Positions 14,690 to 62,471 are shown, numbered from the stretch's first letter. The stretch: DNA of 64,000 bases from an uncultured bacterium (GCA_903908595.1 CAIVSN010000116.1:454-64453); one strand, 5' to 3'. The notes: generated from the letters alone by a model not told the origin. Program-made: numbers and translations.

Positions 14690-14811
14690 GAGACTTCTGC
14701 AAAATGATGAAATCCGAAGTCAATTTCGAGCACTGCAGTGAGGCGTACTGGCAAGTACGTCGAACGAGGAGCGGAAAAATTGACAAGGAGTTCGCATTTT
14801 GCAGAAGTCTC
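14690..14811. repeat. Family-A palindromic element, copy 1
   Basis: Termini gagacttctgcaaaatg / cattttgcagaagtctc. Conserved core gatgaaatccgaag...gaggcgtacTGGCAAgtacg...caaggagttcgc. The right end abuts the ATP-grasp gene's stop codon. Confidence 0.85.
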
Positions 14812-15794
14812 TACGGATCGAATATCAGCTTCAGCATTTCCCGTCCGGTATTCACGCCCGTAAGTTCCCGGTCTCACCCGAGGCCCGGGGTGGCGTTCAC
14901 TTCGAGGATTATTCCCCCGGTTTCTTTCAGGGGCTTGGAAAAATCGGTAGACAGGATATCGATTCCGCAGATTCCCAGTCCGAATTTTTCCGCGATTTCG
15001 ATACACGTTTGCCGGGTTTCGGGATGCAGCAATGGGGTAATGTCCCGGGCGGTGCCCCCGGTTCACAGATTCGAGTTTCATCGCAGCCGGAGGCAGGCTC
15101 AATCGGGCAAAACGCTTTCGGGAGAATATCCCTGCTTGCCGATGAAATCCCGGAGTTCCCCGTCGATCGGGATCAGGGAAAGCGGCGCTTCGTATCCGTT
15201 TCCCCGGAGCGAATTGCTTTCGTTTTCGTACCGGATCAGCGCTTCGACGGTCGATTTCCCGTCGCCGGTCACCGCCGGGGGAATCCTTTGTAGCCCGAGC
15301 AATACCTTTCCGAGCACTACCAAAACCCGACATTCGTCTCAGGCGACCTGCTCCTGTACGATCATCCGGGGGTATTCCTCCAAAGACGCCGTCAGTTTTT
15401 CCGTCAATTCCCGAACGTCCCGCAAGCCCATTTTCACGCCATTGCCATGGGCTCCGTCGACCGGCTTGACGATTACGGGAAAAACGAAGTCGGCAAAGTC
15501 CTCAGGCCCGAAGCCTTCGGACAGCCGTTTGGCATCGACGTAGCAAGTGCGGGGAATGGGAAAACCATATTTGGAAAGCATAGCATACGACAATTCCTTA
15601 TCGTCCGCGATATTTTTTCACAAGGCGGAATTCGCTCAAAAATCGGTGCTTTTGAACGTCACGGATTTCCGGGGCGATCGCACGATGAAAAAATTTTTTT
15701 CGGGAATGACCACTTCGACGGTGAGTCCGAGATTTTCCGCTTCTTCTTGGAGAACCTGGGAGGAAATCGACCAATAGGTCATGAAGTCGGTCAT
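14811..15794 (-). CDS. ATP-grasp ligase resembling the cyanophycin-synthetase N-terminal domain / RimK family
   Basis: Same-frame track ORFs 15636-15848, 15339-15593 and 15099-15323 are joined by 7 in-frame TGAs. Ends in TAG 14811-14813. Blocks: PVIVKPVDGAHGNGV, RIPPAVTGDGKSTVEALI, NL[G]TGGTARDIT, GICGIDIL, GGIILEVNATPGL. Confidence 0.75.
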
Positions 15795-15860
15795 AATTGG
15801 AAAAATTAGGGAGTCCCATGCGAAATGATGAAATGAAATCTGTCTCAAACAGCGGGATCC

Positions 15861-16898
15861 CTATTGGGCATAACAGCTTGCCACCGAGTCGAGCCATTCC
15901 TTCGCGAAATACCGTTCTTCCGGTTCGCACAGATATCCGGTCATGATGTTGTTCTCCGTGAAATAGTATTTTCCGTCCTTTCCCACGAGGATGTCCAACC
16001 CTCCGTGAAACTCGGGAACGATTTGGCAATAGCGGAGGATTTTCAGCTGGACATCCTCGGGAATGACGCTCAGATCCAATCGTCTCAACGTGTTTCATTT
16101 CGCGATATTGTGGAGTACCTGTCATTCTTGCCGCTCTTTCCCGTGCACTTCGAGAAGTTTGGGACTTCATCCTGCCATTTTTGCCCAATATACCCGGTAT
16201 TCCGTATCGGAAACGTCGAGCAGCTCCATGATGACGTAATCCCCGCCGCAAGCCTGGGACACGAACGAACGGAGCCCGTCTTCGAAACCGGTTTCCGCGA
16301 CCCCGAATATCCGTATCCCCTCCCCGGAAGAAAATCCCGCGTTCTTCGCGATCGCCGATTCGCCGAACCGGCCGGATTCCCGTATGAATTTCACCAAGTA
16401 GGAGAAATCGCCTTCGTCGCAGACATACGGCACGACGCATCGGGGAAAATTCTCGCCATCCGCATAGGCAAGCGCGTGGCACTTCGAAGAAAGCGGGGTA
16501 TTCTCCGGATTTTCGAGATTCGTCACCACCCGGATGTCCCACCGCAATTTCGCGCTTTTCACCAAGAAAGCGAGGAACGATTTCGGCAGGCCTCCGGTCC
16601 TGTGGAGATATACGGTACTCCCCGGGGGGATTATGGAAAAATTCCCGTTTTCGTCGATCCCGAACAGGCCATCCTGCGATACGAAAATATTCCCCGAGAG
16701 GATGTGTCACATTTCGGATCGATCCCGGAGGAGTTGGGAAAATACGTATATGACGTCCACTCAACTGTCCCCGACGGAAAAATATGCCTTCGAGTTCTCC
16801 GCGAATCGGGAAACGTTTTCGAAGGAAAATCCCCCGTACGACTCCGAAACCCGTTTCAATTCGGAAACGGAAAACGAGGTAAAACAATATTTTTTCAT
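15861..16898 (-). CDS. Second ATP-grasp-like protein (345 aa)
   Basis: Same-frame track ORFs 16761-17093 (from the internal ATG 16896-16898), 16167-16565 and 15861-16088 are joined by in-frame TGAs at 16761, 16707, 16167, 16122 and 16095. The C-terminal FHGGLDILVGKDGKYYFTENN resembles an ATP-grasp C-domain. Ends in TAG. Confidence 0.55.
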
Positions 16899-16942
16899 AC
16901 TCCCTGGGGGTGAGGATACGGCATTGCGACGGCATTTTTCTC

Positions 16943-16962
16943 CCGATTTTTCGAAAAATCGG
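16943..16962. promoter_or_regulatory. Perfect 20-bp palindrome CCGATTTTTCGAAAAATCGG upstream of the ATP-grasp pair (candidate operator)
   Basis: The sequence is its own reverse complement. It lies about 45 nt upstream of ATG 16898. Confidence 0.4.
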
Positions 16963-17261
16963 AACTTTGGAGCGATTCGGATACGCACGTTATGATTTCC
17001 CATCGTATGGGATTTCTTGAAAAAGTCAAAGCCGGCCCCGATTCCGCGCGTAGCCGGCCGGATGCATTTTGCGAATCGCTGGAAATATCCCATGAGCCAG
17101 GCTCAAAAAGAGATACTTGGGAAATAATGGGGCACGAAAAACGTCATAGGGTCGTACTTACGGCCCAACCCTATCGTGGAAACCAAAAATTTCCGAGATT
17201 TTTCCGTGATTTTCGTAAGGGAATCGGTAGCGTGTTCCCCTATCCATTACCCCAATCCACC

Positions 17262-17669
17262 ATGAAACTCCTTACCAAACGCATCCTCGAACAATTCCGG
17301 AAAATATGAAACCAGTCGGAAAACCCCGATCCCCTCGTCATCTGCAAATTCTTCAACCCGGCCGGGGCGGGCACGTGGTACGCCTCGGAATTCGACGAGG
17401 AAAGCGGGATATTCTTCGGGTACGTCTCCATTTTCGGGGATTGGAACGACGAATGGGGGAATTTTGCCCTTTCGGACCTCGAATCGTTCCGCGGAAAGTT
17501 CGGGCTCGGAATCGAACGGGACATCCACTTCGAGCCGGAGCGGTTTTCGGAATTGGGAATCGACCGCCAAACCGAGGAGGCGGATGCGGAGCCGTATGCG
17601 ATTGGGCAAATCGCCTATCCATCGACCGGGGAAATCATTGCGACGGCCGTGCCTTCCACGGCGGCGTAA
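17262..17669 (+). CDS. DUF2958 family protein
   Basis: MKLLTKRILEQFRKI[TGA=G]NQSENPDPLVICKFFNPAGAGTWYASEFDEESGIFFGYV...LSDLESFRGKFGLGIERDIHF matches my recollection of DUF2958. Ends in TAA 17667-17669. Confidence 0.7.
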
Positions 17670-17677
17670 CCCAGAAA

Positions 17678-17712
17678 TATACCCAATAGGAATTGGTTTC
17701 CTATTGGGTATA
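17678..17712. repeat. Family-B minimal hairpin (15-bp perfect stem, loop ttggt)
   Basis: tatacccaataggaa-ttggt-ttcctattgggtata, located between convergent genes. Confidence 0.85.
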
Positions 17713-21066: not shown

Positions 21067-21094
21067 CTTGCAAACCCCGGCATATATGATACTA
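21067..21094 (+). promoter_or_regulatory. Candidate promoter of the giant gene (TTGCAA-N16-TACTAT with an extended -10 TG)
   Basis: -35 TTGCAA 21067-21072 and -10 TACTAT 21089-21094, with TG at 21086-21087. It lies about 30 nt upstream of ATG 21125. Confidence 0.45.
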
Positions 21095-21124
21095 TGGCCC
21101 CTAGAAAGATATCCGATCCCTTCC

Positions 21125-24100
21125 ATGTCCGTATTTCCCAAACCAAGCAGGCTCAAAAAATGGGTTTCCTCACTCCTCATTTTTACCATGTTCGCGAGCC
21201 AGACGGTGCAATTCCCGTTGCTGGTTCCCAGGATCTTCGCGGAAGGCAGCGACGTTCCGAATTTGGTATCGATCATCGTCAGCGAGTCCGTCTTTACTGG
21301 CAACACGAAGGACAAAATTTCCCAATATTCCAAGGATATCCAGGCTTCGATGACCAATACCCGGGTCGTCATCGTGAACGTGCCCGACAACATCGCCCCG
21401 CACAGCATCGCGGCGCTCAATGAAAAACTCTACTACGAAGGCGACGGCGACGGGATTTCCCGGCTCGTGGGGACCGTCCTGATCGGGAAACTCCCGATTC
21501 CCGTGGTCCACAACGGAAGCAAGAGCTTTCTCAGCATCTATCCGTATACCGACTTCGACGAAAAGGTCTTCATGTTCGACGTGGAGAAGGGCTACTACGA
21601 GGCTGGAAGCGGACCCGTGGAGCATGACAGCCCAGAAATCTGGCACGGGGTCATCCAGCCGAATTCCGGGGATTCCGCCACCGACCGGGCCAAACTCGAA
21701 CAGTACCTCGACAAGACGCACGATTTCTATGCGAAGCAGGGGGTGTTCGCCAACATGAGCCAGACGCCCTACGTTTTCTATCTCGACATCACCCACGACC
21801 AGGAAGCCGCGAGCGCTTCCAATTGGAAGGCGTACAACCTCGGCCTCGAATACCTGGAAGATCTTACCTACAAGCGCTTCAACAAGCACCTGGCCAAAAC
21901 GCTGTACGACAAGTTCCAGGGCATGCAGGATTCCACGGCGGATCTGACTTCCGAGGAAAAAGCCGAGCTCGGGGCCGCTGGGGTGGACATTCCGCCGATG
22001 GCCGATTCCATGGATTTTTCCAGTTCCCCGGACATCCAGACCCGCACCGCCATCACCGAGGTAACGAAGCAGTTCTTCGAGATTTTCAACGAAAAATACC
22101 TCGGGGACATCCTCAAGTTCATCTACAACACGGGAAGATACGGCGACGGGAGGGATACCCGGGCCGATATCGCTCCGGTACTGGTATCCAAGCGCGACGA
22201 ATTCATGAAGCGGGTCATTAAGGACAGCAATACCGCGCTCGAAAACAGCATCGACCAGCTCGTGAAATCCGGCCTCGCGATCGATCTGGCCATTCCGACC
22301 GACGTCAAAATCACCAAAACCGGCTCGGGCGCTGACGCCAACAACCCCGTTCCGCCGATATACCGCAATTACTATTATGGGAAATTGGCGAGTTCCATTA
22401 CCAACGCGAAGGAGTGCTCCATCGTCCGGGGTTCTACGCTCCCGGTCGAAGCGAACCGGGGATACAATATCCTCAACGTCGAGCCGGATTTGCAGAAGCT
22501 TACCCAATATTCGACGCTGTGCTTCCCCGGAGGGCTTCCCGCGACGATGGACTGGTGGGGCGGCAACAGCCCGCTCAACGTGAAGACCGATTCGTTCACG
22601 GCGGCGGATTTGGCGATCTTGCAAAGCGCGACGGGCGGAACGGACCTCTCCGCCTACGAAGGCAAGCTCTCCACCAAGTTCGAGCTCAAGGGCAACGTCT
22701 ATAAGGATTACGTCATCCAGACCTTCGATCTCCTGGGGCAAAGCGAAATCTCGCGTACCGGAGCGCTCCGCGTCAATTCCCCGTCGGATTGTCTCGCCTC
22801 GAACTATATCGCGGATCCGTTCGTCGGAAAATCCGAGGATGGGATGTCATTTTCCCAATTCCAGCATCCGCAGACTACGGGGGGGACGCAGTTCGTCTGC
22901 GTGATGCGGGACAGCAAGGGGGTGCTCGGCCACAAGTTTTTCGTGCAATCCAGCACGACCCTTTTCGCGGACGCCATCGCCGACCGGATCAACCCGCCCC
23001 TCTGTACCGTCGTCAAAGTCAATCTGGTGGGAGGTTTTTCCAAGCAGTTCGGACGGCTGTGCGATGAAGAAGTACCGGTGGCGACCACGGGAAACGGAAC
23101 GGGAGAATCCTCCGGAACGGAAACGGTGACGACCGGGACGACCGAGGAGTACGACTTCAAAAAGATATCTTCCTGGATCGTCCACAAATCCCCCACGGAC
23201 GAAGAATACGGGGCCGCCGTCAAAGGCATGACCACTCCTTCCCTCGCGAGCGACGGGGACCGCTACATCGACTTCATGGGCCCTGCGGGAACCGTCCAAA
23301 AAATCGTCTATCCGAATTTTTTCCGGCTGAACAACCAGTCCTACGAGGCCGCGTTGGCAACGGCAGGAACCTGAGGCAGCACGTTTTTTGGCGATCTCGT
23401 GACCGTCGTGGACCACTCCCTCGCCTCGGCCGGCTGAGGCACCGTGGCCAACACTGGGGCCAGCCTGCTTTCCGGCAATATGCCCGACCTGACCATCGAT
23501 ATGGTCAAAGATTCCATCAAGGCGGTCCTCGATAAGAAAAGCGCCGAAATCAACGCCATTATCAACGCGCAGGATCCGGCGCTCCTCACCGGGGATCAGG
23601 CCGCGATCTACCAGCTCATGAATACCGGCGCCTATCCGGCCGCCAACGTCGATCTCTATACGATGGTCGCGAGCAGCGGGAACATGCTCACGACCCTGGC
23701 GGATACCATCCTCTGGTACAACCGCACCAACGCGACGAGCAAGTATTCGTTCATCCTCGAGAATTACCTCGACCGCGACGGGAACCGGGACTACCCGCTT
23801 TCCGGGCACCATTCCGATTATGAAATGGGATACATCGGCGGACCCGGCGACGCGCAGAACATGTACGTCAAGGTCGACCCAGAATCCAAAGGCACCCTGT
23901 CGAAAGACATTACCGACATCCAGGCCGACTACGGTTCCCTCGTAAACCTGCTGGACGCCGCGAACGTCGCCGAGTACAGTCCCGAAGATTCCCAATTCAA
24001 GTGCGGGCCGCCGGAGGGCGTGGTCATTTGGAAATGGCTTCCTGCCGTCTTCTGCTGGCTCGGGACGATTCTCCCGCCGACCATTTCGGCCGGATCCTGC

Positions 24101-27100
24101 GGACCGCAACTCGGCTCCGATACGGACAAGGGGCAAGACCGCGATTTTTTCACTTCGATTCCGGGCACGGACGGCAAGCTCGCCTGGCAGCAAGACCTCG
24201 ACCATAACGGAATCCTCGACGGATACGAGTGGGTCAAGGACGGGGAAATCAAGCTTGCCGCTTCTCTCAAGCGGATCGGATACCGCTCGGGCGCGGCGCT
24301 GACGGCCGATCTCACGAAGGACGGCCGGATTCTCGCCCACGATTCGTACAACCAGGTATTTTTCGACGTCAAGAAAATCACGCTGCTGAAGGGTCAGAAC
24401 GATCTCGAAGGCAATCCGGTGACTTCCGACAAGATCGTCTACGTCCGGGGAGGAACGGGAGCCGCCGGAAGCATCGAGACGCTCAAAAAATACGTTTTCT
24501 TCACGCCGATCGCGGTCCGGGCGGAGGCGGGAACGGCCACCTACGGCATCCAATCCATCGACCGGGACATCGATATCGATATCGTCGCCACCGTCGCTCC
24601 GAAAGACAAAAACGGAAACGTCGCCTTTTCCAAGGATTCCAATCTCATTACCCTCAAAGTCCGGGACGAAGCGCTCAAAATCGGTACGGAAATCCAGGAA
24701 ACCACCGGAACCGGATCCCGGGTCGATCCGACCTTCAAGGCGGGAGACGCGAGCAAAATCACCTTCAAGTTCACGGTATCCGGGAAAAATCCCGAAACGC
24801 CGACGGCCGCGAAATCGCCCATCAAGATCAAAATCCTCGACGACGTCGACGGAACGGAGCTTACGCCGAGGCCGGCGGATATCGGCAGCGACACGTTCAT
24901 TTATGCCGGAAACCTCCTGAAACAGGCCGGGAATTACCGGTTCGAATTCGTCGACGCGGAAGACCGGTACGGCACCGTCATGGTGAACGTCCTCCCGGGC
25001 GACCCATTCAAGATCGAAGCCGTAGCGGCCTCGAACATGTTCGTGAAAGGCCAGAAAAATATGGTCCTCGTAACCGTGAAGGACCGATTCGACAACTACG
25101 TCAAGGGGGACTTGCTCCAGGTCGCCGGCACCGTCGACGGGGGCGCGTATTTCACGGAAAACCACGATGCCGCCAATTCGAAAAGCACCGTCGAAGGCGT
25201 ATTGAGCTTCGAGATGAGCGCCGACGCCGGAAGCACGGGCAACAACACCCACAAATTGGATTTCAGCACCGTCGACAGCAAAGGCGCGACCATCAAGATG
25301 GCCACGCCGCTGACCGTCCAATCCATCGACTACGCCAAGATCCAGGTAAACGTCGCGAACCGCGGCAGCCTGGTGGCCGGAGGTTCCGGACAGACCGTCA
25401 CGCTCAAGATTACCGACAATCTCGGGCAGGTATTGACCGGGTTCAACGGGGTCGCCAGTCTGGATTTTCCGAAAAATTCCGGATTCTTCAGCACGCCGTT
25501 CGTCCAAATCACGAACGGGACCAATTCCGGCGCCCTGACCTTCACTCCGGGAACGGTCGCGATCCTCGATGCCAAAATCGACGTGCAGGTCCCCGGGATC
25601 GTCGACGTGGAAGGCGGAACGCTGAGCATTCTCCCGAACGTGCCGATGCGCGTGGGACTCCTCTCCGATACCGCCAAATTCGAAGCCAAGGTCGGGAATT
25701 CCGCCGGGATTACCGCGCAACTGTTCGACCGGTACGGCAACATCGCCTACAATCACCCGGCCGGAATGTCGGCGAATTTCACGATTCCGAGCGGTTACGG
25801 CAAGTACGGCAGCATCAGCGGGGGGAACGTGCCATTCGCGAACGGGGAAGCCAAGGTCCAAATCAATTCCAGCAGCAGTCCGGGCACCCTCTATTATATG
25901 GTGGAAGTCGCTCCCGGACTCGAAACGAATACCTTTACCATAGAAGGGGAAAATATCGACACGACCCCTCCGACGAAAACTTCCGTCACGATCAAGGGGT
26001 ATTCCAAAAACGTCGCCTACATCGAGAGCTACTACCTGTGGAACGCGGAAAAACTCGCGAAAACCAACTACAACGTCCTCTCCACCACCCTGCTCGGGGC
26101 CGACTACGGAAACGTCACCGTTCCGAACTATCTCGCGGGCGAACTGATTTTCAATTCCGGCAGCTCGTCGATGGCGGTCACGACGCTCCTGGGCAACGCC
26201 GAAAAGCGGGACGAAATCGTCCAGATGACCCCGGGAGGAAAAATCGTCCTCGACCGGGGCCAGACGGCCGAAGTCCAAATCGGTTCCAACAAGAACCGGA
26301 CGACGCTCGATATTTTCGACCCGTTCAAACGGGAAAATATCGGAAGGTTCTATCTCAATACCAGTCCGGCGACGCCGACGTTCGCATGCGCCACGGACGA
26401 AGCGGACGAAATCGACGCCTGCGACTTCCAGGGCAAGGAATCCTATATGGTCCTCAAGGGATTGGGCGAGGCCGAAGTGACGAAGATCGGCAACCGGCTC
26501 AGCCTCGGTTTCGACGGCATTCCCGTCTTCGAAATTTCTCCGGACGGAACGATCACCAAGTATCCGAACGTCACCGTGGAAGCGGACGGGGAAGAAAGCA
26601 GGAATCTCCTTTCGCTCTCCATCGTCAGCAGCGGCATCAAAATCGGACGGCTCGGCATCAAGTGGGACGCTCCGGAGATTATCGTCAGCTCCCCTTCGAC
26701 CCTCGACGCAGCGCTCGCGAGCCACCCCGGCACCATCGTCTACGAGGGCATTTCTCCCCGATACGGCATCAAACAGGACAACCTGGGGAATACTTCCGCG
26801 GGAGACAAGGGCCTCAAGATTTTCGCCCAGAGCGAAGACGTGGAGACGGACCGGGATCTCATAGGATCCTCCGGCAAGCTGGGATACGAGGAATACGCCA
26901 AAAACAAGGGGATCGGATTCGGCGACGGCAACAACACCCAACTCGAATTCGCGAGCCAATCCACCGTCGGGCAATCCGCCAAATCCTTCGCGACCTACTC
27001 CGAAATCGTCATCGGCGACCCGGTCGCGAGGCTTCCGGAAATCCTCTCTCCCCAGAACTTCGACCGAACCCTGGGAAAAAGGCTCATGAGCAGCGCCGGC

Positions 27101-30100
27101 GGAATCATCGAATCCTATTCGACGATCGACTACAACCGGGACAACATGCAGGACATCGTCGTCTTCTACCAGGACGGCAAGGTCGAGCTCCTGCAAAACT
27201 ACCGGTGAACCTACAAGAGCCTCGGCTATCTCCTCTACGTCTTCGACGCGGGCAAGGAACGCAAGGGCGCGGGGGATTTCAACGGCGACGGCTACGGGGA
27301 CTTGGTCATGGTGGACCAGGACGGCAAACTCATCGTCATCCAAAACCGAAAGGGCAAATTCGTCCGCGTACCCGCAAAAATCATCGACCAAGCCGGTGCC
27401 GAAGCCAAAATCGGCGGATCCGTCATGCAGCTGGAAATATTCGACATGGACAAGGACGGCAAAACCGACATCGTCATTTCCGACGATTCCGGAGAATTGA
27501 ACATCCTCTACGGCGGCGGCACTCCGGACGACGTCGTTTTCACCAAAAAATTGCTCGACGACGGCATCGGAATCAAGCTGGGAACCGGGGAATTCACGAA
27601 CGGCGGGGCGATCCGTTTCGACGGCATCAAGGAAATGACCCCGTTCACCCAGACCGGGTACGTCATGGAAACCGAGGCTTCCAGCGCGGACGCCGACGTC
27701 GAAACACTCAGCCTTCCGGACCAAATCCGGCTCTTGGACAGCAAAATCTACTACCAGCAAACCGTCTACGAGGAAGTTCAGAACCCGGCGGAGGCCCAGA
27801 ATATCCGGCTGCTCAGCGGAGTGGGCGACGATCCGGACAATCCCGGCGTCCCTAACCAGGCGCTCGCCGATGAGATCAGCCAGACGATTCTCGATTTGCA
27901 GAACCAGGCGGCGAGCGGCAGCATCGACACGAGCGAACTCACGAACGCGACGATCGAAAAGCAGCGCTCGTTCCTCCGATCCGAATTCGCGGACGGAAAA
28001 GACATAAAAATCGCAAAAAAATATACCGATAGCAACGGCGGGTTCCTTCAGGCGGGGGATCCGATCCTGGTAACGATCGACGTGACCAATGCCGGAAGCG
28101 CTCCCCTTTCCGGAGTCATCTATCTCGACAGTTACGAAAAATCCGTGTTCCAGCCGGGAGAAAACGATTCGTATGCCATTTACGGCGGGTCGGGCAGCAT
28201 GATGGGAACCGGGGCTTTCGCCGCCTTCACGGGAAGCACGTTCTTCGACGAACTGGCAACGGTCGTGGACCATTCATTGTCCGCGGCCTCGGGCGGCTGA
28301 TCGGCCGGAAGCGCCGCCGCCACGGGATCTGCCCAAGACGGGCTCATTGGCACCGGCAGCCTCGACCAGCTCACCGAAGGGGAATTCGACTTCCAATTCG
28401 GAACGCTGACCATCCCCGTGGGCCAGAAAATCACCATCAAATACCTCCTCAAGGCCAATGCTATCTCCGTCGGGAAATTCCACGTGGGCGTACTCGAAAC
28501 CGATGACATATACGGGGACGTCAGCATGAACGCGAACTCGGTCTGCTGAGACCAGGAATGGCTTTGGAAATCCATCGTACCGACTCCGAGAACGTATTCG
28601 GCAAGAACCCTCAGGGATATCCCGGAGAGCGGCGACGTAGCCGGTACCCAAAAGGGCAAGTTCACCGATTTCAACGGCAACGGATCCCCGGACTATATCG
28701 ACCTCCTTTCCGGAACGGGCGGTAACGATTCCATGGCGTCCTCGCTCTGGGATCCAACGCGACACGGGATCCTGGTTTTCCGCGAAACCTCGACCGATAC
28801 CGGGCTGGACGGAACGAATTTCGAAGTCGGACGGGTCGTCTCCAATTCCGAAACGGGGTACGTCCAACTCAACCCCGTATCCGTAAAGGAAGACGTTCCC
28901 GTTCTCGCGACGCCGGCGCTCGCCAACGGGACGATCAACGGAAACGAACTCGGCGCCGGAAGCGTCAGCAACGTCCTGACCGGAAGCGTTACCAATACGC
29001 TGATCACGACCGCCTGCGGACAACCGGGCACTTCCGTTTCGGATCTCCGGCTCACGGGATACCGGCAGATCTATCATCCGAGCGTCATGTCGGACATTAC
29101 GGGAAACCTCTCGCTCGTCGCCGTCGGAACGTCGAAAACCCTCGACGCTTCTGGAAGCGTCATCGGTACGGGCGACTGCATGATCGACATCAATTCGACG
29201 TCGAATCCGGCATGGGACGGTACCAAGGTCACCGGGCTCGGCTGGAAACTCCTCACCAAGGGAACCTTCCAGCACTTCAGCCTCGGGGGCACGCAATCCA
29301 ACCTCATCGCCGAGTCCGTCGGAATTCCCGACAGCCACGAACCGCTCGGAAGCGATTTGTTCACGTTCGAAAGCGATGGGTCGCTCATCGGGGGAACCGT
29401 CGACATCGGGGGCATGTCGGACGAAAACATCGACAAGGTCAACGGGGCCATCGATACCATCGTCCAGGGCCTCGGGTGCGGATTCGGAGGAGGTAGCTGC
29501 CTCTCCATGCCGATGAACTGGGCCCCTCTCGCCCCGGGTTCCGCTCCGGTCGTCATGGGATTCCCCATCGGGGGACTCAGTCCGTCGACGGGTTTCCCGG
29601 TATTCAGCAGCCTCACGGGCATCCAGACGATGTGCGGCAAATCGCCTTGCTGCATACCGAGCGTTTTTCCCATAAGCCCCCTCGCCTACGTACCCGGACC
29701 GGCTTGCGGATCCCCGAGCGCCGGAGGATACCTGGGCACCTGGGCGCCAACCAACACGTTCCGCTTCTATATCACCCCGACCATCACGGGAGCCGTGGGA
29801 ATCGCCGCGTGTTTCGGAGGTACGGCCATGGTTACCGGACGAATACCGCCACAGGCCGTATCGCCGCTCGTGCCGGGAGGCAACTGCGTCGTCGCGGCCA
29901 AGCCGCTCCTCGGCTGCAAGGACGACGGTTCCGACGGGACGTTCGAGGACTTGTGAAGCACCGATAACGGAACCCTCAATGCCGGATCCTGCAAGAACCA
30001 ATCCGACGAGGAAACCGTTTCCGCCGAAGACCAGGAAAAAATCCGAGCCTTCGTCCGCGGCGACAATACCTTCGTGAGCGATATCGTCAAAAATGCCGCG

Positions 30101-33100
30101 GGCCGCGGAAGCATGATTATTCCGAACGGTCCCCTGCTCTCCATCTGAGGCCGGGGCGGAAGCGGAGCCGGCAGCTTCGAGCTGGCCATCGATCTCAAGA
30201 GCATCAAGAACTTCGATATCGGCATCATCACCAAAATCAGCAACCAGCGGGTTTCCGCGTTCCCGGATTTCATCATGGACTGGGTCAACCGCCAATTGGA
30301 AGAAGTCGCCAACAAACTCACGAGCCTCCCGACGCTGTATATCATCAAGCCGGATTTCCGAGGCGTCATCGACGGCAACTGGAACGGGTTCACGGAGAAG
30401 CTCGGGAAAGCCTACGGTACCGGAAAGAAAAACGGCAGTCCGGTACTCGGCAACGAAAACGCCGGCCGGAGCATTTCCGGCGTCAAGTCAGCCTACGAAT
30501 TCATGTCCCGGCTCCCCCTTATCAAATTCGAGAAAACGACCCTGGACATCTCCTATCCGGACATCGGCCAGGAAGACCTCAACAAGGCCCTCAAGAATCT
30601 CAAGAATACCAAGGCCCAATGGGAGCGGGAGATTTCGAGCAAGAAAGCCCTGTACGCGGGCACGTTGACCGCTACCGGCATGGACGCGAGCATTATCGTC
30701 CGGTCGGAATGACTTATCAGCAGCATCAACCAGAACATCCGAACGATAGAGGAATACAAGAAATTCCCGGAAAAACTCGCGAAGTACCTTACCTGGAAGG
30801 AACGGTATGCGGCGCAATTGCTCTGCAATATCACGGCAATCCAAAACATGCTGGACAGTTTCATTACCAAGAATGCCATCCGCTTCAAGGCCTGGGTCGA
30901 GTTCTTCGAACTGCTCAAGAACATCCTCAAGGGCTGGCAGCTCATCCCGGACCTCTTCTACAAGAACGAGGCCGAATGCGGGGTGTGCCGCAACGAGCGC
31001 TACGACGCGAAGCATTTCATGTTCAAGCTCATCAAGGCCATCATACCGCCGCTTCCGATCATCAAGTTCCCGAAGTGGCCGGACATCATCTTGGACCTCC
31101 ACAACGTTCGGCTCGGCCTCCGCATCGCCATGCCGGAATTCGTGTTCCACCCGACCCCGATCGTCCTTCCGAGATTCCCGAATCTCGCGTTGCCGACGCT
31201 TCCGAAACTGGGCATCGGTTTGCCGAGCATTCCGACGCTTCCGAGCCTGCCGCCGTTACCGGAATTGCCGGATATTCCGTCGCTTCCGCTCATCACCCTT
31301 CCGGAACTCCCGCCGCCGCCGACCATCCCGAAGCTCTTCGGAGCCATCAAATTCACGTTGAACATCCTCAAGATCATCGCGAAGGTCCTCTGTATCATGC
31401 GTTCGAATCCGTTCGTGCCGGAATGGCGCGCCGGAGACCAGATTGCCCAGATTACGGAACGGCAGGGCAAAATGAAGCTCGACTTCCTCAATATCGAATT
31501 CCCGCAGTTCAACGCGAGCTTCGTCGATGCCATCAAGGTGACGACCTACGTGAATTTCGAGTTCCAGATCGACTTCCTCCTCGAAATGGCCAAAGCCACG
31601 TTCGAACCGATCAACGCGTTCACCTCGAACCTCTCGAACATCGTTCCGAACGCGACCAAGGACATCCTTCCGAACAAAGTGGACCTCCGCGGGCTCAATC
31701 CGGGCAACCAGAAAATCCAAATCGGTCCGACCGGAATGGAAGGCAAAAACCCGTTCGTCAAGCAATACGCCCAAACGTTGGCCCAAGCATTCGTTACGAC
31801 GATCAAGCAAGGACAATTCTACGCGAACGAATCGGCGGCCTACGAGGAAATACGGGAGAATCTCGCCGACGAGCTCGCCCATACCCACGCGACCCCGGGA
31901 ACCCCGGGATTCGCCATCCTCGAAGAAATGCGGGAAGGACTCCGGATTCGCGGCGATGCCGAAGCCGAAGCCCTCGCGACCGAACTCCGAAGGGACAACG
32001 ACGAAAAGTTCAACCTCGCGAACGGTTTCGTCAAATCGGAGATGCACGAAATCACGGAACTCCAGGCCCAACTCCACCTCGTGCAAACCGGCAAGAAGGA
32101 CCTCTCGGATATTTTCGGGACCCGGAAAAGCGGGGGAAATGCCGAATTGACGGATTCCGCGAACCCGTACAGCACCGAATCGGAACTTCCAGATTTCACC
32201 AAATTCAACGAACGGGCCTACGTCGCCTATTCCGAACTCCTCGCACCGAAGCCGGACGACGAACTCGTGACCATGGGAAAAAATCTCAAGGACAGCATGC
32301 AAGCCTATTCCGCGGAAGCCGAGAGGAAGTCCGCCGAATACTGAGCCGGAACTGACATTGCCGGCGGAGGCGAACTCGCGAATTACGAATACCGCGGCAT
32401 TTATACCAAGGACAACGGTCGGCAGATCCGGCTCTTCGATTACACCAACGACCTCATGGGAGACGAGAGAGCCGTCCAGGTCGACCGGCTCGGAAACGGG
32501 GCGATAGAATATATCTACCTGAGCGGGGACGGATTGTATCTCAAGACCAAACTGGGGAATTCCGGAACCTCGGCGACGAGCGGAAGCGCTTCCACGGGCG
32601 GAACCGGTTTCTTCGACGAACTCGGCACCGTCGTGGACAATTCCCTGTCCATGGCTACGGGAGGAACTCCGACTGCCAACACCGGAGGTGGGACTTCGGG
32701 CAGCGTCACGACCAGCATTCCCGTCTACCGGCTTTCCGGCATCATCGATCTTCCGAATTCCGAAACGTTGCGGCCGACCGCGCCGAACCGTTTCGTGGAA
32801 AGATTCGTGGCTTCCGGGGAAATCAACTTCTCGTTCCGGCCGGCCGACTTGGTCAACGACACGATTTTTCGAATGGAATTCTACGATTATATCGATCGCT
32901 TCGACCTGCGGATGAGTGGGAAAGACTGGAAGGATATCGCGCCGACCACCCGGGTTTCCTACGTGGATCTCGTCCCGGAATTCACGGGCGAAACCGTGAC
33001 GGACGCTTCCAATACCGGCATCATCCTCCAAAAACCCTATGCGAAATACTTACAGGGAACCGGGAACGGATTCATCAGCGGGGCGGACTACCGCACCCTC

Positions 33101-37116: not shown

Positions 37117-37204
37117 TTTGTACATCCCGGCGGGAATCTGATATCATTCCTTCGCCATGCCCAATTTCGGGCAAATCAACCAATTTTGGGAAAAGGAGAA
37201 ACAA

Positions 37205-37438: not shown

Positions 37439-37445
37439 AGGATTA

Positions 37446-39881: not shown

Positions 39882-39903
39882 GAAGTTTCCATTTTATACC
39901 CAA

Positions 39904-40028
39904 CGGGAATCTCGTTAAAAACGCGAACTCCTTGTCAAATTCTCCGCTCCTCGTTCAACGTACTATCGTACGCCTCACTACGGTGCTCAAATTTGACTTC
40001 GGATTTCATCGTTTTAACGGGATTCCCG
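39904..40028. repeat. Family-A palindromic element, copy 3 (inverted orientation), abutting a family-B half-site (39895-39910)
   Basis: Termini cgggaatctcgttaaaaacg / cgttttaacgggattcccg. The central hairpin is cgtac-GATA-gtacg. It overlaps the stop codon of the methylase gene. Confidence 0.85.
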
Positions 40029-41291: not shown

Positions 41292-41300
41292 AAAGCGGGA

Positions 41301-43466: not shown

Positions 43467-43514
43467 AGGAAAAAAATAAAAAACATCTTTCCCATATCCG
43501 AACGAATGCCTCTT

Positions 43515-43633
43515 GAGACCCTGGAAAAATGATGAAATTCGAAGTCAATTTCGAGTACCGAAGGGAGGCGTACGAGAGTACGCCCGCAAGGAACGGAAAA
43601 ATTGACGAGAAGTTCGCATTTTTCCAGGGTCTC
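43515..43633. repeat. Family-A palindromic element, copy 4, in the pnp leader
   Basis: Perfect 17-nt termini gagaccctggaaaaatg / catttttccagggtctc. The central hairpin is cgtac-GAGA-gtacg. Confidence 0.85.
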
Positions 43634-43723
43634 TCTCGGCTTGCGACGACGGCACGAACCGCCGACGCAAGCAAAGAGGCTACGCTGGGTTTGGGAGATA
43701 GCCAGAGTATACGGGAAAAACCG

Positions 43724-46654
43724 CTATTGTAAAAGCGTAGGCGAATTTCGTACCGAATCGTCGGCGAATTTCGGCCTTTTGGCGTTCCGGAGGTACTCCG
43801 TGATTTTCCGCCCCTTCTGCTCGTATTGGCTCGCCAGAATCGGATGTTCGCACACGTTCTCAAAAATCTCCGTGACGAATTCGTAGAGTTTCGGCATTTT
43901 CTTATCGCCCATATGCATATACTCGAAGTACCCGATTTCGAAAATCAAAGCGATGATGAACGGGTCGACGATCTGGTCGAGCATCCCGATTTCCTTCCCG
44001 TTATCGTCGCGTTCCATCATGGAATAGATCGATTCGTCGGTTTCTTCCGAAAAATCCACGTTCGCGAATTGCTTCAAAAATGCCGTGAACACGTCGTTTC
44101 TCAGGCTTTTTCTCCGATCTTCGGAAGTTTCCTTCGGTTTCTTGTTCTTGCCGAGCGAATCGTCGATCTGGAAATCCTCCATATATTTGAGGAGATCGTT
44201 GAAATAATCGAGCGTAAATTCGATATCGTCGCCATGGACCCTCGCGAGCGTCCGGGAATAGAAGAGGTGCTTGGCAATATCGGCCCATTCCACCCGCTGG
44301 AGCGATTCGATGCGGTCGATTTCGTCGAACATCCGGATGTCGTACTGGTCCAAGAGCTCGTCGGACAGCGTTTCAAGCCGCAATGGATCCGAGAACAGGA
44401 GCGTCCGGCAGGCGCGGTGGAAAATCTCGGGATCGCCGTTCGCGGAGAGTTCGAGATACGTGCCGAGATAGTCCGGATGGTCTTCTGGCAAATCCTCGAT
44501 GAGTTTCAAAAGTTTCGAAGCGTCGTATACGCTCTGGTCCGGGCGTTTTTTCGCTTCTTTTTCCATAATCAGCCGGTTGGCCCGGGCGATGTCCGAGAGA
44601 AACCTCGGATCCTGGGTCTCCTGGTGGATTTCCTCGAAAAGCCGGAGGGCCATCTTGGGCTTCGGGGCCGAATACAGGTAGTATTCCGCAATCCTCGTCC
44701 TGGCCCGGAGATTGCCGGCGGCGGCGGCATCGCGGAGGATGGAGAGGCCGCTCCGGATTTCGCCGTACGCAATGGCGGTTTCCCCGAACATCGCGAGGAT
44801 TTCCGCGGGATAGCTCCCGTCGGGAAGGATATTTTCCTTGAGGATATCGGCAACGATAACTTTGAGGTCGATCGGGTTCTCGGGATCGAAATCCGGTCGG
44901 GTCGTCAGCGCCACGACCAAATCCTCCGGCGCGTGATTGCCGGAAAAAGCGAGGTTGAGCATCGAGGAGACCACCTCGGGATCATGGAGATCGGCTTGGG
45001 CGAACGCCGACAGCGCGTACCGTTCGTACCCGCAGTTCTGGAGCAGCCGCCCGAACTGCTTGGCGGCCGCGGGAGGCATGAAATCGAGATTGATCTTCTC
45101 GATCATCGCTTCCGTATAATCCACGTCGGCTCCGTAGAGGATCGCGGCCATCGTGAACGCGACCAGGCTTCCGTAGTCCTCAAGCGTGGGGGTATTCAGC
45201 TGGAACTTGCCTTCGAGCACGGCGATCTTGACCGCGTAATAGTTCTCTTCGGCCTTGAGCACGGACATCGCGGACTTCTGCATCAGGATGTAGAAATCGG
45301 CAAAATCGTCTCCGAGCAGCTTGAATATCGACTCGATCCGGGCGTGTACCAGCGTCAGGTCGTGCATCAGGGGCTTCAATGTCGCGAGGTCGTGTTCCTC
45401 GGCAAATTCCTTGAGCGTCCGGATCATGTCCGCTCGGTCGGGAGTGATCGCGAACCGCGCCGCGAGATAGAGGTGCGCGGAAAGCGTCGGTTCGAAATCG
45501 TCGGTGACTTCCGTATCCTCGGAATCGGCTTCTTCGTCGGATTCGTCCCCGGCTTCTTCCTTCAAAAATGCCCGGGCCCTCGGCAACGGATTTTTTTCGA
45601 GGAAATCCTTGAGCAGCGCCCGTTTTTCCCATCCGCCTTCGTACAGTCCCATGACGAAGGTCACGAACTGCTGCGAAGCCGGATAATTGCGGAATTCTAT
45701 CGCCGCGAGCCGCAGTCCCCGGAGCTGGTACAGTATGGCTTCGGGCGTGCCTTCCTTCTGTTCTTCCAATCCGCTCGCGACCGCTTCGAACAGGTCCTTC
45801 CGGAATCCTGATCCGAGAAAGTGATCCGCGCCATTTTCTCCCAGTTTTTCGATCGCGTCGAAGTCCCTCGGGAACCGGTAGTCCCGCAGGTGGGTTCACA
45901 AATCGCCGTCGAGCGGCTCCCCGAGATCCCGCAGGTATTGGAACAGCGGAATGGCCTCTTTGGAATTTTTCGTGATGAAGTGGACTTGCGCCAAGGCTCG
46001 TAGGGACTCGACGTCCCGGTACTGCTCCCATCCCATGGAGAGGATCCGTTTCGCGAGCTCGATTTTTTTCTTTTCGAGGAGGATTTGCGCGTACGGCACG
46101 ATGGCCGCGGCATCGCCGTCGAGCTGGAACGCGGTCCGGAAGGATTTCGCCGCCGGCATGGTTTTCTTGGCGACGTACCTGAGGTACATCGCGTAGGCCC
46201 GGTCGAACTTGGGATCCCACTCGCCCCGGGCCTCGATTTTCTCAAGGAATTCTAGGAAAAACGCCTCGAACCGCTGGGAAAACAGTTCCCGTTTCCGGCC
46301 GAATTTTTCGTCGGCATCCGAATCCTGCGACCAGTAATCATGCCCCATGATCGCGATGACGTTCTCGCACAAGGCGCCCGGCACCTCGTTCATGATCCGG
46401 TTCAGCCAGCTGAAAATCCGGACCAGCCAGCCTTTTTCCAAGAGCTGGAGCGAAATCTTGACGATGGTTTCCCGGGGCATCCCTTCGAGGGAAGGAATCG
46501 CGTCGAGGCACGCGCCCGCCTGGGACTTGGACGCGGCGAGGAGCCGGTAGGCCCGCTGTCCGTCCTCCTCGGCGGAAAGGCGCAACATCGCCTCCTTGTC
46601 GAAATACGGGATAAATGCGGGATTATCGTTTTTACCTGGGGCGGGAAGGTTCAT
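43724..46654 (-). CDS. Large hypothetical all-alpha protein (976 aa)
   Basis: Same-frame track ORFs 45896-46654 and 43724-45769 are joined by TGA 45896-45898. Ends in TAG. No family recognised. Confidence 0.6.
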
Positions 46655-46778
46655 ATGGCGGGATTGGATTTGGTATTTTATAATTGAATAATTTGCAAAG
46701 TCAAAAGATAGCGCCGAGGGATTTTTTGTTTTGACATTCTTTCCGAAGAACTGGATGGGTGTAAAGATAATCCGGGAG

Positions 46779-46825: not shown

Positions 46826-46991
46826 CTTAGTCTCTAAGCAAAAATAAGTTGCAACTTTGCCGCGTATGCATGAGGTATCAGGCAAGGCGACTCTTACGCA
46901 GTGGAGCGGGCTCCACAAGTATGAGGCAACGATGGCTGATATCTTATGCATACGATGGGAAAGTGTAAGTTATTTTTGCTTAGAGACTTAG
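46826..46991. ncRNA. Rod-like structured element of ~165 nt. It is either a candidate ncRNA or a palindromic mobile element.
   Basis: A 22-bp closing stem (cttagtctctaagcaaaaataa / ttatttttgcttagagacttag), a 19-bp inner stem with two G-U pairs (cgtatgcatgaggtatcag / ctgatatcttatgcatacg), and an apical hairpin gtggag-cgg-ctccac. Confidence 0.4.
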
Positions 46992-47134: not shown

Positions 47135-47485
47135 GTGGAAATACAAATATACCTGATTGGCTTCGATCTCTGGCTTCTCGTCCTCACGACCCTGCTCGGA
47201 ATGACGGTAAGCACGATCGGATATGTGAAACGTTTGCCGAACGGGAAACGGTTCGATATCGTCAAAGCATGGAAAACGTCAATCATTGCCACAATGTTGC
47301 TATTGTGGGGATTGATCATCGCGCTCATGGTCTGGTTTTCTTACGAACCGGAATCGTTCGGCAAGTTTTTCTACTATCCCATCCAACTCTTCTCTGCCGG
47401 AATCGTCGGCGAAACGTTGGCGCTCGGGTTGTCCTGGATTCTCAAAGGGCATCGCAATTCCCTTCTGAATCTCGGGAAAACCTGA
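47135..47485 (+). CDS. Small membrane protein (116 aa) with standard-code hallmarks. It ends in TGA.
   Basis: AGGAG 47124-47128 lies 6 nt before GTG 47135. It has about four hydrophobic helices. The ORF closes with TGA 47483-47485, and an intrinsic terminator follows at 47520. Under code 25 the frame stays open to TAA 48992-48994. Confidence 0.5.
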   Translation: MEIQIYLIGFDLWLLVLTTLLGMTVSTIGYVKRLPNGKRFDIVKAWKTSIIATMLLLWGLIIALMVWFSYEPESFGKFFYYPIQLFSAGIVGETLALGLSWILKGHRNSLLNLGKT

Positions 47486-48449: not shown

Positions 48450-49007
48450 ATGCCACTGGAAACCATCGTCGCGTTCGATCGATACTGCATCCTTTCGGTA
48501 TCCGCGTTCCAAAGCCCCTGGCTCGACCCCGGCATGATTGCCCTTACCAAAGTCGGGGATATGGGAGCGGTATGGCTGATCGGTACCGCCACCCTGCTCC
48601 TCTGGCAGAAATACCGGTACGAAGGAGCCGTTATTTTTTCCGGACTGGCATTGAATACGGTCCTCGGGGAATGAATATTGAAGCACGTTTTTCAAAGGGA
48701 TCGCCCATTTCTCGATCTGCACGAAGTCGCGCTCAAGATTCCGGCTCCGATTACTTCGTCGTTTCCGTCGGGACACACGAGTGCTTCGTGGTGTTTTGCC
48801 CTGCTGTTCACGGTATTTTTTTGGAAACGTTCGAGATCCGCCGTCATCCTCGTCTGGACGTTGGCAATCGGCATCGCGTTTTCCAGGTTTTACCTCCAGG
48901 TACACTATCCGAGCGATATTCTGTGAGGAATGGCTATCGGTACGGCCAGTTCGATTGCGGTAATCTACATTTTTGGAAAAATCGACGCCAGTAAAAAACT
49001 CCCCTAA
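48450..49007 (+). CDS. PAP2 superfamily phosphatase (BcrC/undecaprenyl-diphosphatase-like)
   Basis: Frame-0 track ORFs 48450-48674 and 48678-48926 are joined by TGA 48672 and 48924. Motifs: KHVFQRDRP, PSGHT, SRFYLQVHYPSDIL[TGA]G. Ends in TAA 49005-49007. Confidence 0.8.
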
Positions 49008-49021
49008 CCGGGGAGTTTTTT
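48994..49021. terminator. Bidirectional terminator between convergent genes
   Basis: aaaaactcccc-taacc-ggggagttttt. The PAP2 stop codon lies in the loop. Confidence 0.6.
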
Positions 49022-49039
49022 ACTGGCTGGCAATTCCAA

Positions 49040-52543: not shown

Positions 52544-52578
52544 TATACCCAACGGGAATTGGTTTCCTGTTGGGTATA
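52544..52578. repeat. Family-B minimal hairpin
   Basis: tatacccaacgggaa-ttggt-ttcctgttgggtata. Contains one G-T pair and covaries with the 17678 copy. Confidence 0.85.
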
Positions 52579-61082: not shown

Positions 61083-61103
61083 AGTTCGCGAGATGCCCCG
61101 TGG

Positions 61104-61667
61104 CTATTTCGCCCGTTCCTGGTATTCTCCGGTTTCCGTGTTGATAATGAGGTATTCCCCGTTGTTCACGAATCCTGGAACCCGCATTTCGAGTCCGGTT
61201 TCGAGCTTGACCAGCTTGTCGACCTTGCCGTCGGCCGTATTCCCCGCAACCGCGGGATCCGCCTCGATGACCTTGAGCTTGACCCGTTGCGGGAGCATGG
61301 CCCCGATGAACCGGCCCTCGTAGCTCTGGATGTCCACGATGAGGCCTTCCGTCATGTAATTGACGGCGTCCCCGATGTCGTCGACCGTGAGTTCGATCTG
61401 TTCGAAAGTATCCTGGTTCATGAACGCGTACGATCCCGCCGACTCGTAGAGGAATTCGAATTTTACGCGTTCCAGCGTGATGTCTTCCATCTTTTCTTCG
61501 CTGTCGAACATCTTGTCCACGGAGTTCCCCTGGAGCAGGTTCTTGAGACGGAGCTTGATATTGGTAGCCCCGCGCCCGCCCCGGTGGAGTTCGAACTTGA
61601 GGACCAGGAGGATGTCTCCCCCGATTTTGACGACCGTACCAACACGGCATTGCATTGCGAATTTCAT
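61104..61667 (-). CDS. efp: Translation elongation factor P
   Basis: Intact 187-aa track ORF with EF-P-wide similarity (VGTVVKIGGDILLVLKFELHRGGRGATNIKLRLKNLLQG...VEADPAVAGNTA). Ends in TAG. Confidence 0.9.
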   Translation of the reverse strand: MKFAMQCRVGTVVKIGGDILLVLKFELHRGGRGATNIKLRLKNLLQGNSVDKMFDSEEKMEDITLERVKFEFLYESAGSYAFMNQDTFEQIELTVDDIGDAVNYMTEGLIVDIQSYEGRFIGAMLPQRVKLKVIEADPAVAGNTADGKVDKLVKLETGLEMRVPGFVNNGEYLIINTETGEYQERAK

Positions 61668-61704
61668 AAAAAAAAGTTAGTTCTTGCTGTTTTTGGAAAT
61701 GATT

Positions 61705-61790
61705 TGGTGCCCAGAATGAGACTCGAACTCACAAGGGATTGCTCCCACAGGCTTCTGAGACCTGCGTGTCTACCATTCCACCACCTGGGC
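61705..61790 (-). tRNA. tRNA-Leu (anticodon CAG), class II with a long variable arm, CCA encoded
   Basis: Minus strand reads GCCCAGGTGGTGGAATGGTAGACACGCAGGTCTCAGAAGCCTGTGGGAGCAATCCCTTGTGAGTTCGAGTCTCATTCTGGGCACCA. The anticodon loop is CTCAGAA. Confidence 0.9.
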
Positions 61791-61923
61791 CAATGCTACG
61801 AATAGCGGCAATCTTTCCAAAAAACGTGCAGATAGTAAGCAAAAGCTAAAAAGAAGCAAGTTTTGACATTTTTAATTCTTTATGTATCGTTTGAAAGTGC
61901 AACTATCCGTAACCTTTTCGCGC

Positions 61924-62268
61924 ATGAAAACCGATATCGCATCCGGGCATTTCGCTCCGGAAACCCCGGAAAATTCCGATCCCCTTCTGCTCGCGGCTCC
62001 CCTCAAAACCACGGAATACGCCGGCACGGTCGCGGCGACCGTCGGAGCGCTCCTCCTGTCCGGATGCGTCGTAATAGCGGAACGGCCGAGTTACGACCAT
62101 TACCCGTCCCGGCACTACGAACCGGTACGAGAACGGCATTACAAAGAACGCCGCCGGATCATCGTCGTGGAACGCCCGGTCATCGTGGAACGAAAAATCA
62201 TCGTCGTGGCCCCGAAACATAAGAAGGACAACGACCGCCACCACCGAGATCACGACCGGAAAAACTAA
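61924..62268 (+). CDS. Small basic putative lipoprotein
   Basis: Taken from track ORF 61882-62268, starting at the internal ATG 61924. Has ...VGALLLSGC, followed by an Arg/His/Lys-rich tail. Ends in TAA. Confidence 0.45.
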   Translation: MKTDIASGHFAPETPENSDPLLLAAPLKTTEYAGTVAATVGALLLSGCVVIAERPSYDHYPSRHYEPVRERHYKERRRIIVVERPVIVERKIIVVAPKHKKDNDRHHRDHDRKN

Positions 62269-62351
62269 GTCTTTCGGTATTTTTTTCCAAAACCCGAAAA
62301 AATCCCCAAGATTCCCCTTTTGAGGAATGTTCATTTTGACTATAATCCTCC

Positions 62352-62471
62352 AAAATCCTGCAAAACGATGAAATCCGAAGCCTATTTCGAGCACCGTAGC
62401 GAGGCGTACTGGCAAGTACGCCGAACGAGGAGCGCAGAAATTGGCAAGGAGTTCGCGTTTTACAGAAATTT
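62352..62471. repeat. Family-A palindromic element, copy 5
   Basis: Termini aaaatcctgcaaaacg / cgttttacagaaattt. The central hairpin is cgtacT-GGCA-Agtacg. It lies just upstream of proS. Confidence 0.85.

Follow-up and report, generated by a model that had tools for sequence, protein, structure and literature searches.

Family A: an interspersed family of oversized REP-like palindromes in Gracilibacteria

The closest described counterparts of the repeats reported here, which we call Family A and which occur in a 64,000-nt stretch of DNA from an uncultured bacterium (GCA_903908595.1 CAIVSN010000116.1:454-64453; hereafter the window, with positions counted from its first letter), are the GTAG repetitive extragenic palindromes (REPs). 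Among these, complementary variants of the stem define subfamilies, and members lie less than 20 bp past the upstream open reading frame (ORF), between unidirectional or convergent genes (PMC3733652). GTAG REP "termini often provide the stop codon (TAG)" (Di Nocera, De Gregorio & Rocco 2013, PMC3733652), and REP-type repeats can act as RNA elements of the 3' untranslated region (3' UTR), be it as stabilisers, as sites for RNase III or other processing, or as terminators (PMC3733652). In the long hairpins known as REPINs, compensatory changes occur commonly, and the excised intermediate bears a 5' single-stranded tail (Bertels & Rainey 2011, PMC3116915). Gracilibacteria genomes have been reported to rank near the top of all phyla in inverted-repeat density (bioRxiv 10.1101/2024.09.29.615628).

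We read Family A, with a probability of roughly 0.55, as a non-autonomous mobile DNA hairpin, an enlarged element of the REP/REPIN kind with a length of about 120-130 nt, in a host of the Gracilibacteria lineage that translates UGA as glycine. To our knowledge, work on REP, REPIN and ERIC (enterobacterial repetitive intergenic consensus) repeats has been confined almost entirely to Proteobacteria and a small number of other cultured groups. ERIC repeats measure ~127 bp, and the Correia/NEMIS and Rickettsia RPE families are similar RNA-hairpin repeats; Correia elements duplicate TA, and RPEs lie mostly in frame inside genes. ERIC-type repeats, too, act as host RNA elements. Two further kinds of structure are relevant here: the attC sites of integrons, which are variable, structure-conserved palindromes just past ORFs, and the intrinsic terminator, a GC-rich hairpin with a U-tract immediately after it.

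Copies, fold and covariation

Sequence extraction and alignment placed the five copies of the original prediction exactly where it had put them, and in the orientations that it had given: copy 1 at 14690-14811 (+), copy 2 at 37481-37598 (-), copy 3 at 39904-40028 (-), copy 4 at 43515-43633 (+) and copy 5 at 62352-62471 (+). All are full length by covariance model and by fold. Each forms one long rod of ~47 bp that folds at -45 to -61 kcal/mol; relative to dinucleotide shuffles, the z-scores run from -5.5 to -10.5 (-59.7 kcal/mol and -10.5 for copy 1). The RNAalifold consensus of the five has 48 pairs, and a covariance model trained on them returns each at 121-139 bits (138.8 for copy 1; E ~1e-28 to 1e-32). 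The shared core, the conserved CGTAC/GTACG stem and the variable, self-complementary outer arms were likewise as described. The window holds a sixth full-length copy (+), split by a 166-nt palindromic insert into a 5' fragment at 10589-10608 (GGAACCCCGGAAAAACGATG) and a 3' fragment at 10775-10872 (running from ATCCGAAG to CGTTTTCCCGGGATCCC). It first surfaced as a partial covariance-model match of 39 bits at 10774-10852; once rejoined, it aligns end to end with the family consensus and lacks only two A residues at the junction.

The original prediction had proposed a covariance-model search for further copies, and such copies do exist in other genomes. A scan of species-representative genomes with the left-arm core, followed by a covariance-model search of the fetched loci, gave among the matches listed at least 48 further full copies in three other uncultured genomes (metagenome-assembled genomes, MAGs). 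About 44 of the copies listed come from the MAG JAVHRB01 ("Patescibacteria group bacterium auto_43_30"), one from a Candidatus Peribacteria MAG (L005) and two from a Candidatus Gracilibacteria MAG (L020 and L046); besides the window's organism, the carriers are JAVHRB01, JAQTZK01 and CAZRBF01. All other fetched loci were chance matches. The family statistics given below rest on an alignment of 53 copies (A4).

No named family matched, in line with the original prediction. Rfam returned only tRNAs in the window at gathering score, and at E <= 10 only weak chance matches resembling C/D-box snoRNAs. Pattern scans of IMG/VR viral contigs and JGI metagenome contigs gave 0 matches, and BLAST against plasmids and phages gave no meaningful one. 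Nor was Family A found in relatives with 74-79% identical PNPase, where 3.8-22 kb were examined (one locus, L062, is on a 1.27-Mb contig). As far as sampled, the family is restricted to a narrow Gracilibacteria/Peribacteria group and has no existing name.

Two loci of the census deserve separate mention. In a relative with 74% identical PNPase (L064), a 102-nt perfect-armed palindrome at 3117-3218 is a weak model match of 26 bits; its core is loosely like that of Family A (GACGAAGTTGAC...GTCGACGAGGAAT), and it may represent a distant sister family. At L025 (2173-2412), two Family A copies form a direct tandem with no spacer and a common 5' arm. The 3' arm of the first is degenerate, and the arrangement resembles a local duplication more than two insertions.

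The 53-copy alignment gives a detailed picture of the element. Its outer arms follow the consensus RGAACCYC-NNN-AAAAYG / CRTTTT-NNN-GRGGTTCY, and arm variants group the copies into subfamilies, some of which span genomes. Strong conservation marks the mid-arm core, which is asymmetric and contains tandem G·A together with bulges and two G·T wobbles at fixed places. The CGTAC/GTACG apical stem is conserved as well, and the loop that it carries is hypervariable: the GNNA loops of the original prediction hold for the five window copies but not as a family trait (11/53 copies). Altogether, 48 columns are essentially invariant and 52 variable, with a total of 46 private substitutions; pairwise core distance is 0.155 for copies of the window, 0.21 for those of JAVHRB01 and 0.20 from one genome to the other.

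Standard pairs occupy 93.3% of the cells of this alignment. Both sides have changed at 33 of the 47 pairs, which makes 357 compensated cells, and pairing falls to only 32-46% when partners are slid by 1-3 columns. None of 500 shuffles matched any of five covariation measures, so that the covariation seen in the original prediction is statistically strong. Three other readings of the sequence were discarded. The outer arms are not host terminator stems with the core inserted in the loop, since they have a common consensus and subfamilies and no matching right half was found. Peptide coding from a conserved ATG (MKSE...) was rejected, as variation tracks pairing and frames break at the loop. On inspection, the consensus does not fit a K-turn in the GAUGA/internal-loop region.

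The mismatches bear on whether the fold is maintained as RNA or as DNA. Setting aside the two fixed wobbles (U·G at 20-107 and G·U at 54-73 on the GATGAAAT strand), G·U and A·C mismatches are about equally frequent at all other pairs (89 and 83, respectively). This symmetry is what is expected for transitions on double-stranded DNA, not the G·U excess of one selected RNA strand, and selection specific to an RNA strand is therefore unsupported; the original prediction of selection for a rod-like fold is supported as to structure, but not in its leaning towards RNA. A fold needed for mobility as single-stranded DNA is at least as likely as one needed for a host RNA function.

Gene context and one-sided ends

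Gene contexts depend on the genetic code. In-frame UGA codons of JAVHRB01 align with glycine in the window proteins, as in code 25 (UGA = Gly), and 6 of the 7 in-frame UGA codons of an ATP-grasp gene (RimK/cyanophycin-synthetase-like; 14811-15848, minus strand, called with code 25) fall at conserved glycines of its homologues. Gene calls with code 11, whether they took the longest ORF or used a codon model with naive training, gave giant shadow ORFs and false gene ends and were discarded; a 1808-aa ORF at 22847-28273 (-) and a 472-aa ORF opposite proS are such shadows. The context statistics use a seed-trained codon model and code 25 gene calls.

In the orientation of the original prediction, the 3' side of the element meets a gene stop rather than a start in a ratio of 36:13 (p = 0.0014), and in 27/53 copies a converging gene stop lies within -2 to +6 nt of the element's 3' end. 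The 5' side has no preference for stops (20:24), and stop distances there are 14 nt or more. Among unidirectional contexts, 18 copies are reverse-complemented relative to transcription and 7 forward; 11 of the 53 copies lie between convergent genes and 4 between divergent ones. Surviving copies are thus found mostly just past a gene stop and reverse-complemented in that mRNA, with the G at the element's terminus finishing or supplying a TAG stop.

TAG accounts for 19/27 of the stops next to the element, compared with 40/132 (30%) for other genes (Fisher p = 1.5e-4), and CTA is found within 0-4 nt of the 3' foot in 22/53 copies (p = 6e-9); this foot has the form C(n)TA, or (G)TAG when read from the opposite strand. 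GTAG is read in 11 of the 19 TAG cases, and at L023:474 the gene's own TAA stop is followed by TAG and then by the stem. TAG is rare in copies that do not adjoin a stop codon. It may be borne by the element, be an insertion target, or arise as a by-product of insertion at a stop when the element's first G regenerates TAG. The C-terminal tails of ATP-grasp and PNPase homologues, compared to judge whether the TAG is native or element-borne, differ in length.

The opposite end carries a different mark, the 9-nt tail AAAAYTCCC (AAAAYTCCN), in ~60% of copies. It inverts along with the element, as a comparison of window copy 2 with the syntenic JAVHRB01 locus L023 shows, and it follows only 3/132 stops, on which grounds we rejected it as a host motif or insertion target. 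The flanks of the 53 copies show no target-site duplication above a shuffled-pair control; at the empty site of copy 4, duplication length is ambiguous (0-4 nt) within a TC repeat. With regard to the original prediction of a rod-like fold rather than fixed ends, the fold and its covariation were upheld, but the ends do carry RGAACC/GGTTCY, the one-sided tail and the TAG. As an aside, ordinary terminators of this clade are bidirectional, of the form AAAA-YYCCC...GGGRR-TTTT (L062 2524-2557; L064 13704-13735 and 14725-14764; window 48987-49027), and their arm resembles the Family A tail.

The window copies illustrate the variety of these arrangements. Copy 1 is without the tail, and its final base is the first base of a CTA that, on the minus strand, reads as the TAG stop of the ATP-grasp gene (14811-14813), which abuts or overlaps the 3' end of the copy. 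Copy 2 is directly preceded by the intrinsic terminator (37446-37478) of the upstream plus-strand gene; its tail, assigned from the flank consensus AAAAYTCCN at -9 to -1, lies at 37600-37608 (-) and reads GGGGTTTTT on the plus strand, or AAAAACCCC in element orientation. Copy 3, like copy 2, comes after an ordinary terminator. Its 5' arm forms the final 13 nt and the TAA stop (40014-40016) of a minus-strand gene for a 425-aa methyltransferase-like protein, and a solo TATACCCAACGGGAA terminus (39895-39909) abuts its 3' end. Copy 6 has both marks, the tail GAAATTCC ahead of it at 10581-10588 and a TAG on the plus strand after it, with CTA at 10872-10874.

These contexts, which the original prediction had given as gene 3' ends or leaders, had to be redrawn with code 25. 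Copy 4 lies 90 nt past the TAG stop (43724) of the upstream minus-strand gene and 48 nt before the pnp start (43466), and is reverse-complemented, that is antisense, in the mRNA of both flanking genes. Copy 5, with a weak tail ATAATCCTC at 62342-62350, is 27 nt upstream of the proS start (62499) in sense, the minority orientation. Two separate assemblies of the same strain as the window (L059 and L061) end at window positions 62402 and 62409, in the apical region of copy 5; since these independent contigs end inside the copy, the repeat fragments short-read assemblies of this organism.

Other genes of the window also contain in-frame UGA. A single frame of 4520 codons at 21068-34630 (+) has 12 and probably encodes a single giant surface protein; ORF lists made with code 11 break this frame up, and the 1808-aa shadow lies on its opposite strand. 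Several other genes have 1-7 each. A 346-aa ORF at 12262-13302 (+), with 4 in-frame UGA, is one that we take, from its appearance by eye, to resemble RhuM-type "virulence proteins".

Mobility and rival explanations

The JAVHRB01 locus L023 (JAVHRB010000036) is syntenic with window positions 37117-46712 at ~77% nucleotide identity, with an 88% identical PNPase. Here, copy 4 is a clean 119-nt presence/absence difference: the spacer, which can be aligned outside the copy, measures 257 nt in the window and 138 nt in L023. L023 in turn carries a copy right at the pnp stop, which is derived, because in the window, L065 and L062 only a few nt separate the pnp stop from the next gene. In place of copies 2 and 3 and the 2.3 kb that separates them, L023 has just one copy, in opposite orientation (474-605). 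The segment between them (37599-39903), absent from JAVHRB01 and flanked by the two copies as direct repeats, contains genes for proteins of 142 aa and 401 aa, the latter with a FISUMP domain; the copies may mark a gene insertion or deletion via recombination. Truncated or decayed remnants are present at L023 1870-1917 and L019 1135-1209, and copy 6 is interrupted by another element.

Copies have thus been gained, lost, truncated and interrupted over the divergence time of two congeneric genomes. Since occupancy differs between genomes with 88% identical PNPase, we conclude that the element moves. The comparison of orthologous loci put forward in the original prediction therefore came out against conserved occupancy, and one disrupted copy is tolerated.

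On our REP/REPIN-type reading, an enzyme supplied in trans would copy or move the element, which it would recognise as a folded single strand by the conserved asymmetric core. Propagation would then be limited to copies that keep the hairpin, and we propose that this filter gives rise to the covariation between subfamilies. Any effect on the host would be secondary and might come from a highly stable hairpin in the 3' UTR with GGGARUUUU after it.

Several results weigh against this reading. The GATGAAAT strand is more stable as RNA in 48/53 copies, by a mean of 6.2 kcal/mol, an advantage that stems from the two fixed wobbles. Private substitutions are few (46) and 48 columns are invariant despite a pairwise distance of 15-21%, a degree of conservation that fits purifying selection on each resident copy, and hence a host function, equally well. 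The TAG, being present in ~41% of copies and mainly where there is a stop codon, could reflect selection for intact ORFs. The comparison of orthologous sites covers one syntenic region, and exact-protein look-ups for empty sites returned the same strain only. A scan for YxxNP/HUH motif pairs and a phmmer search with the distant query E. coli RayT (no match at E < 0.1) revealed neither a RAYT/Y1 (HUH) transposase nor another candidate enzyme among the ORFs of ~400 kb, parts of two genomes. Finally, there are departures from the described repeats. Family A measures 118-125 nt with ~47 pairs, 3-5 times longer than GTAG REPs (20-40 nt, 6-13 pairs), of which >90% of members carry the tag. REPINs are two inverted REPs with invariant end 16-mers and a variable spacer, whereas in Family A the ends and apex vary and the mid-arm is conserved.

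Some of these points would be accounted for if Family A were selected by the host as an mRNA 3'-UTR element (a stabiliser, a site for RNase III or other processing, or a terminator) and mobility were only its means of delivery. We regard this as a tentative alternative, clearly less probable than the mobile hairpin, which may also hold in addition to it. The strong covariation, the invariant columns and few private changes, the placement right after stops with its 18 to 7 orientation bias, and the scarcity of copies between divergent genes (4/53) all agree with it; both strands fold, at a mean of about -42 to -48 kcal/mol, and in the mRNA sense a T-run tail comes after the hairpin. However, it is in that sense that the fixed wobbles become A·C mismatches, making the mRNA strand the less stable one in 48/53 copies, and the equal numbers of G·U and A·C at variable positions do not point to RNA either. 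The U-run begins ~5 nt past the stem (YGGGARTTTT) and exists in only ~60% of copies, unlike in a canonical intrinsic terminator. Copies 2 and 3 follow ordinary terminators and copy 5 has the opposite orientation, while related genomes differ in occupancy and the disrupted copy 6 persists.

Mobility could also be that of a classical miniature inverted-repeat transposable element (MITE), derived by deletion from a DDE-type insertion sequence and cut and pasted via its terminal inverted repeats. A size of ~120 nt, loose terminal inverted repeats (RGAACC/GGTTCY), dispersed copies and presence/absence polymorphism would suit such an origin, and a second palindromic element of the window that bears terminal inverted repeats behaves in a MITE-like way. 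We nevertheless find it improbable: the most variable part of Family A is its termini and the most conserved its interior, the reverse of a MITE, and the tail and tag make its ends asymmetric. The original prediction had named target-site duplications and a matching transposase as the signature of ordinary MITEs. Neither was found: there is no duplication above the shuffled-pair control, and no transposase or longer element with the same ends in ~400 kb. More remote still, and very unlikely in our judgement, are an independently transcribed family of small RNA genes and a set of integron attC-like recombination sites. The rod-like fold, the conserved asymmetric core and the better RNA fold of the GATGAAAT strand are compatible with them. 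A small RNA gene is at odds with a 5' flank that is conserved over 9 nt only and has no conserved promoter, with a forward strand that would run antisense into the neighbouring gene, and with the lack of an Rfam match. As for attC, the R''/R' consensus RYYYAAC/GTTRRRY is absent, the termini reading RGAACC/GGTTCY instead, and copies facing either way are interspersed with housekeeping genes (pnp, proS, tRNA, efp), not lined up in a one-way cassette array.

A more novel element is conceivable within the candidate phyla radiation (CPR). Family A might be a previously unrecognised mobile element recognised by its structure, with a non-RAYT enzyme reading the core, or else a domesticated, portable "3'-end module" that gives a UAG stop and a hairpin to a lineage in which UGA is no stop. 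We consider this unlikely.

Other palindromes, significance and comparison with known systems

The insert in copy 6 (10609-10774, no strand assigned) has termini TATACCCAACGGGAA / TTCCCGTTGGGTATA, folds at -91.9 kcal/mol and entered at GATG^(AA)ATCC. It belongs to a second palindromic repeat family with termini TATACCCAAYRGGAA / TTCCYRTTGGGTATA, for which the window has 8 matches against 0.25 expected. Further members are 35-nt palindromes at 17678-17712 and 52544-52578, the solo terminus at 39895-39909 and a weaker one at 15858-15872; none was found in the 66 fetched loci. The window also has long imperfect palindromes, 144-169 nt in size and with no sequence relationship to Family A, at 46826-46991, 37833-37976 and 47215-47383, one of them just downstream of copy 2. 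A 22-nt palindrome, GGAGTCCAAACCGTTGGACTCC, occurs twice in identical form, 90 nt apart (14290-14311 and 14402-14423), and this pair adjoins tRNA-Arg(CCG) at 14472-14549.

Family A is a well-defined interspersed palindromic family in Gracilibacteria; its copies number in the dozens, and the genomes that carry them are probably small (the contig of a close relative measures 1.27 Mb). Its clean covariation, its one-sided tags and its reproducible tie to TAG stops in a lineage that uses UAA and UAG only make it useful. It also allows one to ask whether the spread of REP-like elements requires a RAYT. In practice, the covariance model can be used for masking and annotating these genomes, in which gene calling needs code 25.

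Among the options that the original prediction offered, a REP/BIME-like element fits best. Like GTAG REPs, and REP-RAYT systems in general, Family A consists of high-copy extragenic palindromes whose subfamilies are defined by complementary stem changes. As with GTAG REPs, its copies mostly separate genes that are unidirectional or convergent, lie only a few nt from where the upstream ORF ends, and show no target duplication. One foot has, in ~41% of copies, an unpaired (G)TAG, which often serves as the ORF stop, and, as in some REP families, the opposite side bears a short conserved motif. It departs from them in its long conserved asymmetric mid-arm core and in its host, a CPR/Gracilibacteria lineage with code 25 in a group outside the phyla surveyed for REPs; unlike in REP-RAYT systems, no RAYT was found in the ~400 kb searched (partial genomes, distant query). 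REPINs resemble it in having a long hairpin of ~100 nt as the replicative unit, common compensatory changes, an asymmetric single-stranded 5' tail and an occupancy that varies between close relatives, but the arms of Family A have no convincing palindromes of their own.

ERIC-type repeats have in common with Family A a length of ~120 nt, an imperfect palindrome in transcribed intergenic regions, a conserved interior and a possible overlap with ORF ends. They differ in phylum and show no sequence similarity to it; unlike Correia elements, Family A makes no duplication, and unlike RPEs it mostly ends at the ORF end. With IS200/IS605 elements (TnpA Y1) it shares the absence of target duplication, asymmetric ends, one-sided insertion beside a short specific sequence, and an imperfect hairpin whose fixed mismatches mark the strand. 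Those elements have two subterminal hairpins and encode TnpA, whereas Family A has one hairpin, no enzyme was found for it, and its flanking TAG is not universal.

We do not file Family A as a REP, because it is longer, is conserved in its mid-arm core rather than at its ends, bears the tag in a minority of copies and has no RAYT that we could find in the ~400 kb covered by a weak search. Its behaviour is of a known kind, that of an oversized REP-like repeat, and is not fundamentally new; the family itself was previously unnamed.

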